Assembly: GCA_965277355.1 (NCBI GenBank)
Contig: CBDICN010000002.1
Location: 1,029,175-1,093,174 of the forward strand
From: Beijerinckiaceae bacterium
GTDB lineage: Bacteria > Pseudomonadota > Alphaproteobacteria > Rhizobiales > Beijerinckiaceae
Direction: 5' to 3'
DNA length: 64,000 nucleotides
The position numbers and the translations under genes were made by a program. Below, in pieces: positions 47,011-47,416 of this stretch. A model generated the notes under the pieces. It was given only the letters and a program-made list of their open reading frames with translations, was not told where the DNA came from and did no database searches. The first letter of the stretch is position 1. Each line of letters begins with the position of its first letter.

Positions 47011-47045
47011 CTCATGGTGAGGAGCGCGCAGCGCGTCTCGAACCA
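47011..47045 (+). repeat. REP-like element, family A, copy 1
   Basis: CTCATGGTGAGGAGCGCGCAGCGCGTCTCGAACCA. Confidence 0.9.
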
Positions 47046-47072
47046 ACCTTTTCGCAACGCTGGCGGTCCCTC

Positions 47073-47369
47073 ATGGACGGTGCCACGCTCTACATCCTGC
47101 GCTGTGCCGACGGCAGCTACTACACCGGCCTGACGCGCCGCAGCGTCGAGGAACGCGTCAGCGAGCACGAGAACGGCCTGTCCGACTACACGAAGCGTCG
47201 TCGGCCGGTGGTAGCGATCTTCTCCGAACATTATCCGACAATCATCGACGCCATCGCAGCAGAGCGCCGGATCAAGGGCTGGTCGCGCGCCAAGAAGGAA
47301 GCCTACATGCGCGGAGACTTCGAGCGCCTTTCAGCCTTGGCGCGGCGCCGGGTCAAGGATCGGGCGTAG
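47073..47369 (+). CDS. GIY-YIG nuclease (YhbQ/UPF0213-like)
   Basis: LYILRCADGSYYTGLT, ERVSEH, AIAAERRIKGWSRAKKEA. Confidence 0.9.
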   Translation: MDGATLYILRCADGSYYTGLTRRSVEERVSEHENGLSDYTKRRRPVVAIFSEHYPTIIDAIAAERRIKGWSRAKKEAYMRGDFERLSALARRRVKDRA

Positions 47370-47379
47370 CGAAGCCTCG

Positions 47380-47416
47380 TGGTTCGAGACGCGCCTGCGG
47401 CGCTCCTCACCATGAG
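47380..47416 (-). repeat. REP-like element, family A, copy 2 (inverted; IS110 target)
   Basis: Minus strand CTCATGGTGAGGAGCGCCGCAGGCGCGTCTCGAACCA. Confidence 0.9.

Follow-up and report, generated by a model that had tools for sequence, protein, structure and literature searches.

A small GIY-YIG nuclease gene between inverted REP-A hairpin repeats in a Beijerinckiaceae genome, a probable divergent member of the Ssn/SRM-type systems

A stretch of 64,000 nucleotides from a Beijerinckiaceae bacterium (contig CBDICN010000002.1, positions 1,029,175 to 1,093,174; here called the window) carries a cassette in which a gene for a 98-amino-acid (aa) GIY-YIG nuclease is enclosed by two inverted copies of a hairpin repeat, REP-A, of the repetitive extragenic palindrome (REP) kind. 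The host genome has 3.89 Mb and 66.5% G+C. We propose that this cassette is a divergent member of the Ssn/SRM-type systems, in which a nuclease is paired with a hairpin repeat, and an analogue of the REPtrons, and that its enzyme nicks DNA beside single-stranded REP-A. We put the probability of this reading at roughly 70%. It rests on the enclosure of the gene and its homologues by the repeat, on the association of gene and repeat across genomes and on the placement of the cassette at a site that is empty in relatives.

Results

The cassette and its protein

The exact search pattern CTCATGGTGAGGAGCG-N(3-25)-CGTCTCGAACCA has three matches in the window, the REP-A units of Table 1, and none in 100 shuffles. 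An earlier note on this DNA had placed a cassette of REP-A(+), the GIY-YIG gene and REP-A(-) at 47011-47416, and exact search and Pfam agree with it to the base. The left arm consists of GTAG (47006-47009), the CCTC tag, the outer stem ATGGT/ACCA, GAGGAG, the inner hairpin GCGC-GCA-GCGC and CGTCTCGAACCA. Its homology to the paralogous cassette of this genome (cassette B) and to the closest homologous locus elsewhere (L001, in genome G002; L and G numbers are our handles for loci and genomes) begins at 46994-47003. The right arm starts 6 bp past the stop codon of the nuclease gene, and its outer end is cut by an IS110-family insertion sequence. Homology to cassette B and L001 stops exactly at 47416. 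With the IS110 element removed, the third REP-A unit lies tail-to-tail at 65 bp (48539-48603) from the right arm, the distance that had been estimated in the earlier note.

The Pfam GIY-YIG domain spans residues 6-75 of the protein, and no other domain was found. The GIY-YIG motifs, previously described as intact, are also conserved: Y7, Y17, R23, E31/H32 and E64 are invariant or nearly so in 24 homologues (Y7 and E64 invariant, Y17 nearly). The gene is under purifying selection, with a dN/dS of 0.15-0.28 for the open reading frame (ORF). The solved structures that match are UPF0213 proteins (PDB 1ywl, E 5e-11; 1zg2, E 3e-9), and the identity to UPF0213 proteins (1ywl, 1zg2 and the protein of locus L095) is 39-45% (47-61 bits). 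Rhizobiales proteins flanked by classical CGTCATTCC-type hairpins are 33-42% identical. A profile of the subfamily gives scores of over 103 bits with more than 150 clusters (50% identity).

The relation of gene and right arm varies within the subfamily. In the Methylocella-type homologues L005, L008, L020, L023, L025, L027, L030, L032, L033, L035, L043 and L048 there is no stop codon before the right arm. The ORF runs through the repeat and gives C-terminal tails like ...SSFET..APQDE; the repeat is therefore partly coding in these loci.

REP-A in this genome

A pattern search of the whole genome gives ~30 REP-A units, which read (GTAG or CAATNC)-CCTC-ATGGT-GAGGAG-(inner hairpin)-CGTCTC-GA-ACCA-CGAGG. 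The inner stem is perfectly Watson-Crick paired over 4-6 bp in 28 of 31 parsed matches (~30 real units), and at least 11 different inner-stem sequences are in use. Since pairing is kept among many stem sequences, the changes are compensatory, and it is the structure that is conserved and not the sequence. In the wider superfamily, the two variable positions of the outer stem are complementary in 72 of 74 units, which fall into four covarying types, GG/CC, CC/GG, GC/GC and CG/CG.

The majority of REP-A units occur in oriented (+,-) doublets ~110-125 bp long, with the units 30-60 bp apart. Folded as a whole, a doublet forms a single long hairpin (-57 kcal/mol, z -12); the third unit of the window by itself folds with -13.1 kcal/mol (z -2.4). 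The ...GGCGGTCC and GAGCC-CTCGTGG junctions of the cassette are common to all doublets, and a doublet therefore resembles a cassette minus its ORF. In addition, two gene-less doublets (C1:1494850 and C2:818620-818743, where C1 and C2 are contigs) hold the 5' leader of the cassette (TCCTTTGTGCTGAAGGCTCGGCGGTCC versus ACCTTTTCGCAACGCTGGCGGTCC).

The repeat map that the earlier note had asked for also places both small GIY-YIG genes of the genome within a REP-A(+)/(-) pair. A whole-genome Pfam search gave four GIY-YIG matches, namely UvrC, one weak match and the two small genes, of which the second lies at C2:201958-202167 in cassette B. Over 442 bp, which run from ~10 bp ahead of CAGTAG through the right arm and include the arms, the two cassettes share 78.5% identity. 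All other REP-A pairs with more than 150 bp between them enclose IS110 copies. A REP-associated tyrosine transposase (RAYT) was considered as the partner of REP-A and ruled out, because the Y1/RAYT transposase family (PF01797) has no match in this genome and was not found in 39 of 44 repeat-rich genomes of the order.

In G002, REP-A units also occur in another arrangement. Locus L001 holds head-to-tail arrays of truncated 39-bp units at 2335-2448 and ~2590-3020, with three units of one kind downstream of the gene followed by about eight of another kind (GTAGCCTCATGGTGAGGAGGGGCGCAGCCCCGTCTTGAA). A cleavage site read from these arrays was rejected, because the unit boundaries in tandem arrays are arbitrary.

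Association of the gene with the repeat across genomes

A homologue scan with one genome per species gave 57 loci encoding relatives of the protein, mostly from Beijerinckiaceae (Methylocella, Methylocapsa), Roseiarcus and related metagenome-assembled genomes. Their flanks bear the same kind of hairpin, CTCATnnTGAGG...CTCGAAnnATGAG, in sense orientation upstream and in antisense orientation downstream. The earlier note had proposed to survey such flanks for repeat pairs. With a local-alignment score of at least 14 between the 130-bp flanks taken as an inverted repeat, such repeats are present in 71% of 48 full-length loci and in 1.1% of 264 control windows, which were shifted by 0.7-1.5 kb in the same loci and not matched to gene boundaries (Mann-Whitney p 9e-18). 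In the genus, at least 7 of the 8 gene copies are bordered by REPs at both ends, and a repeat stands on each side wherever coordinates are listed (G317, G010 and both tandem copies of G011). The last of these, a congener, holds two tandem cassettes (G011:C74:12110-13009), each having its own REP(+)/REP(-) pair.

The type of repeat follows the phylogeny of the protein. In a maximum-likelihood tree, proteins with GG-type arms form a clade (support 99/97), in which the window protein pairs with that of L001 and the cassette B protein with that of L002. Proteins having CG-type or GC-type left arms likewise cluster. This tracking of protein clade by repeat type is the pattern expected of co-evolving enzyme/repeat pairs.

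Gene and repeat are also associated at the level of genomes. We surveyed 301 genomes of the order, scoring the gene as a subfamily match at E<=1e-20 and a genome as repeat-rich at 10 or more pattern copies. Sixteen of 20 gene-bearing genomes are repeat-rich versus 29 of the 281 others (odds ratio 35, Fisher p 1.4e-11, not corrected for phylogeny). Among 21 genomes of the genus, the 6 with the gene average 26 repeats, compared with 7.6 in those without it (p 0.008). The association is not strict, and G053 has a decayed gene copy that is still flanked by repeats.

Metagenomes yielded more distant members of the subfamily, whose flanking repeats have the same hairpin with CGTC or TGTC tags (CGTCATGCTGAGGAG...CGTCTCGAAGCA and TGTCATGGTGAGGAGG...CACGAACCATGACA). 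REP-A therefore belongs to this superfamily as its CCTC variant, marked by a long bipartite stem, and it is tied to the repeat class of the SsnA-homologue nucleases that act on single-stranded DNA (ssDNA). The earlier note had called the family of the GIY-YIG arms unrelated to the other REP repeats of the window. These arms do differ from those around a DUF559 gene at 56721-57356, which are likewise real inverted double hairpins, but REP-A is no isolated family, being a CCTC variant of the CGTC/TGTC-tagged REP grammar. In other Rhizobiales, the loci L088-L107 hold classical Ssn-like genes (YVYILAS..NGTLY.GVT...NP.W.DLY) inside inverted CGTCAT(T/G)CC-type hairpins. Their flank inverted-repeat scores are 21-53, in line with the published Ssn/SRM pattern.

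Genomic placement

The gap between the truA start and the fmt stop codon is at most 25 bp in seven relatives (six congeners and one genome of another family) and 2037 bp in this genome; the cassette site is thus empty in those relatives, a comparison that had been suggested before. The closest homologue, L001 (88% aa identity), lies away from truA-fmt, at the orthologous locus of cassette B: its left flank is 89.6% identical to C2:203468-205270, and the locus is occupied by an A-type cassette in G002 and by a B-type cassette in this genome. The distribution of the gene is patchy: six of the 21 genomes of the genus have it, and ~20 of the 301 of the order. Because the truA-fmt site is empty in relatives and the locus is non-syntenic, the nuclease gene is not a resident housekeeping gene.

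The block 46939-48656, which comprises the cassette, the IS110 element and the third REP-A, lies between the two copies of a direct repeat that reproduces the 3' end of fmt. The repeat is exact over 14 bp and imperfect over ~20 bp (46913-46938 versus 48651-48670, with one mismatch and a 6-bp indel). It is possibly a target duplication. The truA-fmt junction is a recurrent landing site for accessory DNA. In other congeners, it holds a ~580-bp insert (G004; L060 288-866) and a toxin-antitoxin-like pair (G001; L058). In this genome, another GC-rich palindromic repeat (ccttctcccgcttgcgggagaaggtggcccttgcgtcagcaagggtcggatgaggg) lies at 46680-46740, within the 300 bp that separate truA from the direct repeat, and is a second accessory insert of the junction.

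The arrangement of genes and doublets has a possible explanation in homing, in which a free-standing GIY-YIG homing endonuclease would cut empty doublets and be copied into their spacer by repair, the doublets being targets that are spread otherwise. The ORF fits precisely between the two units of an oriented doublet, its flanking sequence on either side recurs in empty doublets (GGCGGTCC ... GAGCC-CTCGTGG), and the A-type and B-type cassettes at the orthologous locus look as if swapped through conserved arms. However, only 2 of ~12 doublets are occupied, and the abundance of the repeat itself depends on the presence of the gene. In addition, no other candidate for a repeat-spreading enzyme was found, RAYT being absent, and the protein has no DNA-binding domain beyond its 80-aa catalytic core, unlike known GIY-YIG homing enzymes, which carry one (PMC11893778). 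We therefore consider homing an unlikely origin of the cassette.

Alternatively, the gene could encode an ordinary YhbQ/UPF0213-type housekeeping nuclease in whose flanks REP-A accumulates passively, its units acting perhaps as terminators, mRNA stabilisers or insulators. Among solved structures, the protein does match UPF0213 proteins best, and the gene is missing from many REP-rich genomes. Upstream of the left arm, a promoter-like site matches 10 of 12 consensus positions, with 0.1 matches expected in shuffles; it is a consensus match only. If this site is real, the left REP-A would fall in the 5' leader of the nuclease mRNA, and the right arm, following the stop codon, would be placed like a stabilising hairpin. 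A housekeeping gene is hard to reconcile with non-syntenic, patchy occurrence and with a position inside a normally tight operon junction. Passive accumulation also has to account for flanking inverted repeats that are ~60 times commoner than in the control windows, and for an arm type that tracks the protein clade. Moreover, no enclosing hairpin repeats are present at the canonical UPF0213 genes that were examined, L095 and the homologue of Neisseria lactamica. Passive association is thus quite improbable. In two Neisseria genomes from the NTS pattern scan, the sole small GIY-YIG protein found by Pfam is the UPF0213 homologue, with no NTS nearby.

The IS110 element and neighbouring features

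The IS110 element that cuts the right arm is 99.6-100% identical to four other full copies, and the genome has five full copies and one partial copy in all. In the window, its ORF (47432-48523, minus strand) encodes an IS110-family transposase. Five of the six copies adjoin REP-A at the identical point, directly 5' of CTCATGG (junction GACAGTCG/CTCATGG), and REP-A is therefore the preferred insertion target of this IS110.

The shared junction might suggest that the repeats belong to another mobile system, such as this REP-A-targeting IS110, with the GIY-YIG gene as cargo or bystander. The copies interrupt REP-A units as insertion targets, though, and are not bounded by REP-A ends; homologous cassettes elsewhere (L001-L057, G317, G010 and G011) have arms without IS110. 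We give this explanation very little chance.

A known RNA family was ruled out for the region, as Rfam gave no match at E<=1 over 46600-48700. Further along the window, the DUF559 gene (56920-57287) lies between its inverted double-hairpin arms GGGGGAGGGGGACC...GGTGGAGGGGG. These arms also form a gene-less 172-bp element (61182-61353), whose terminal inverted repeats measure 33 nt, and a third such arm begins at 63901 (63901-63933). The design of this locus matches that of the GIY-YIG cassette with another nuclease fold.

Table 1. Features of the truA-fmt region in the window, and copies of the IS110 element in the genome.
Feature	Position	Strand	Evidence
truA (tRNA pseudouridine synthase A), left border of the accessory insert	45880-46623	-	Pfam PF01416, E 9e-44
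Direct repeat GATCCTACATCCGC, left copy, duplicating the fmt 3' end with stop codon	46925-46938		sequence reading
Promoter-like sigma-70 match TCGACA-16-TAAAAT, 45 bp upstream of the left arm	46939-46966	+	consensus scan
Left arm, REP-A(+)	47003-47049 (exact-pattern core 47011-47045)	+	exact match
Leader ACCTTTTCGCAACGCTGGCGGTCCCTC	47050-47072	+	doublet/cassette alignment
Gene for the 98-aa stand-alone GIY-YIG nuclease, UPF0213-like clade, Ssn-like architecture	47073-47369	+	Pfam PF01541, E 4e-14
Right arm, REP-A(-)	47375-47416 (exact-pattern core 47380-47416)	-	exact match
IS110-family insertion sequence, 1122 bp	47417-48538	-	Pfam PF01548 and PF02371 on its ORF
Third REP-A(+) unit	48603-48643 (exact-pattern core 48604-48638)	+	exact match
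Direct repeat GATCCTACATCCGC, right copy, overlapping the real fmt stop codon (48661-48663)	48657-48670		sequence reading
fmt (methionyl-tRNA formyltransferase), right border of the accessory insert	48661-49587	-	Pfam PF00551 and PF02911
Other IS110 copies in the genome	C2:432743-433867; C2:202346-203470; C1:1494975-1496099; C1:506213-506358; C2:1994494-1995617		

Discussion

A class of nuclease genes with hairpin repeats has already been published from a sister clade of GIY-YIG enzymes (Ssn/SRM; Chenal et al. 2025, Nat Commun 16:2388, PMC11893778). In Neisseria meningitidis, the protein SsnA has 94 aa and a single GIY-YIG domain (CDD cd10448). It binds the NTS hairpin CGTCATTCCCGCG...GCGGGAATC solely in single-stranded form, the cut falls a few nucleotides upstream of the hairpin, and the Y6A, Y17A and E64A mutants are inactive (PMC11893778). 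Among SsnA homologues, 71% have at least one such repeat nearby and 42% have it on both sides; homologues were shown to be site-specific ssDNA nucleases, and SsnA has a role in ssDNA restriction (PMC11893778). The authors likened NTS-ssnA-NTS to an insertion sequence or a RAYT/REP system (PMC11893778). Our literature searches joining GIY-YIG with REP-type repeat terms retrieved nothing relevant, though this study exists.

The cassette described here shares the main features of the Ssn/SRM systems. The protein is a single-domain GIY-YIG of about the same size (98 aa here, ~95 aa in Ssn), and the catalytic Tyr/Tyr/Glu positions agree (Y6, Y17 and E64 in SsnA versus Y7, Y17 and E64 here, compared through the published residues and not by direct alignment). 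In both systems, a hairpin repeat that is dispersed in the genome lies in inverted orientation on the 5' and 3' sides of the gene, and its grammar is a 4-nt tag, an AT-initiated stem and a tail. Both have a low gene copy number and a repeat abundance tied to the presence of the gene. In contrast to SRM, REP-A has a CCTC instead of a CGTC tag, its long bipartite stem includes an inner hairpin that covaries freely, and the gene-less doublets keep the leader of the cassette, like miniature inverted-repeat transposable elements (MITEs). With the NTS-adjacent Ssn-like proteins L189 and L190 as proxies for the meningococcal SsnA, the protein appears to belong to a GIY-YIG clade outside the classical Ssn group. 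The system appears to be new in both partners, the GIY-YIG clade and a repeat missed by the published motif.

The REPtrons, reportedly first described by Nunvar in 2010, Bertels and Rainey in 2011 and Ton-Hoang in 2012, offer a second comparison. As summarised in PMC3733652, they consist of RAYT (Y1/HUH) genes between inverted REPs, accompanied by REPIN doublets. Like them, the system here has one or two enzyme genes per genome inside inverted REPs, and these REPs are also scattered as singlets and inverted doublets. Each enzyme lineage has its own REP family, and repeats are fewer where the gene is absent. GTAG also stands just outside the hairpin of the left arm. Unlike them, the enzyme is a hydrolytic GIY-YIG nuclease and not an HUH/Y1 transposase, and PF01797 is absent from the genome.

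Other known groups also come close. UPF0213/YhbQ/YazA proteins (Slx1 family) are the closest by sequence and have the same size and the same single domain, but the examined canonical genes are not enclosed by repeats and the subfamily here is a separate clade. Pairs of autonomous transposons and MITEs resemble the cassette and its doublets in their terminal inverted repeats and in short gene-less derivatives that keep the ends and some internal sequence; here, however, there is no recognised transposase, no consistent target-site duplication and a low copy number. In Di Nocera, De Gregorio and Rocco 2013 (BMC Genomics 14:522, PMC3733652), REPs are split into GTAG-tagged, RAYT-linked elements and CGTC-tagged elements. 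The latter are described there as mainly alphaproteobacterial, with the tag variants TGTC and CCTC and stems starting with AT, and as mostly head-to-head dimers that 'apparently lack a dedicated transposase' (PMC3733652). REP-A, reading CCTC-AT-GGT...ACCA and forming (+,-) doublets, fits this class. It differs, by description, in its bipartite structure of 35-45 nt with an inner stem of 4-6 bp, whereas the stems of CGTC-1 to -4 have 8-9 bp and loops of 4-5 nt.

By analogy with SsnA, the 98-aa enzyme would recognise its own flanking REP-A when the repeat is extruded or exposed as ssDNA. The target would be the CCTC tag, the AT-initiated bipartite hairpin and the tail, and the enzyme would nick a few nucleotides beside the hairpin. 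Nuclease activity, specificity for REP-A as ssDNA and the position of cleavage are all predicted from this analogy. With inverted arms, each strand would have a tagged hairpin at its 5' cassette end; therefore, both nicks would fall outside the arms. Nicking might then maintain or spread the cassette and the gene-less ~110-125-bp doublets in a REPtron-like manner, by excision or by copying. The doublets would be derivatives of the cassette that keep its arms and, in two cases, also its leader. Alternatively, the enzyme may have been domesticated and, as in Neisseria, may cut incoming ssDNA that bears REP-A.

The earlier note had seen in the GIY-YIG and DUF559 loci a general class of selfish nuclease-REP cassettes and not stand-alone repair genes. 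For the GIY-YIG gene, the class is supported by the association with the repeat, by the non-syntenic placement and by the published Ssn systems; for the DUF559 half, it is the arms that are confirmed. Active mobility, implied by the word selfish, is presumed here.

Several observations weigh against the proposed nuclease-repeat system. Single REP-A hairpins are no more stable than shuffles (z -0.6 to -2.4), no target-site duplication is evident around the five doublets checked, and the copy number is low, with one or two genes and ~30 repeats. The two cassettes of this genome are paralogous, hence of one origin within it. The published SRM consensus HGTCWYN(0-2)YYVSBRHN(0-5)WNVSBRGN(0-2)RNCYNB matches no part of REP-A or the cassette on either strand. 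The protein is 30-31% identical (28-34 bits) to L189/L190, the proxies for meningococcal SsnA, and UPF0213 proteins are closer; because of this low identity, the transfer of SsnA activity to the protein is an extrapolation. Lastly, the 29 REP-rich genomes of the order outside the gene-bearing set lack the subfamily, and about ten of them have no small GIY-YIG protein at all at E<=1e-8. Therefore, the repeats persist without the enzyme.

A bolder version of the proposal is that the UPF0213-like clade, with its hundreds of clusters at 50% identity, is the dedicated and still active mobilising enzyme of a RAYT-less REP superfamily, CTCATnnTGAGG...CTCGAAnnATGAG, which occurs in Rhizobiales and beyond at tens to ~150 copies per genome. 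The ~415-bp cassette would then be the minimal autonomous element and the doublets its non-autonomous derivatives. We regard this version as tentative and rather doubtful. If it were true, nicking of ssDNA hairpins by GIY-YIG enzymes would be a second, mechanistically independent route for the spread of REPs and REPINs, outside the published Ssn group (cd10448).

In this study, we describe a candidate partner enzyme for a repeat of the CGTC-tagged class. These REPs, the main alphaproteobacterial REP class, had no partner enzyme in Di Nocera 2013 (PMC3733652), and Chenal et al. 2025 provided one for the classical NTS/SRM type (PMC11893778). Our data suggest that a second GIY-YIG clade, distant in sequence, is partnered in the same way with a repeat common among Rhizobiales, in which RAYTs are absent. 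More nuclease/target pairs thereby become candidates as site-specific ssDNA cutters. Together, the gene cassettes, the doublets that share their leader, the empty site in relatives and the REP-A-targeting IS110 make a compact system for asking whether such nucleases move DNA.

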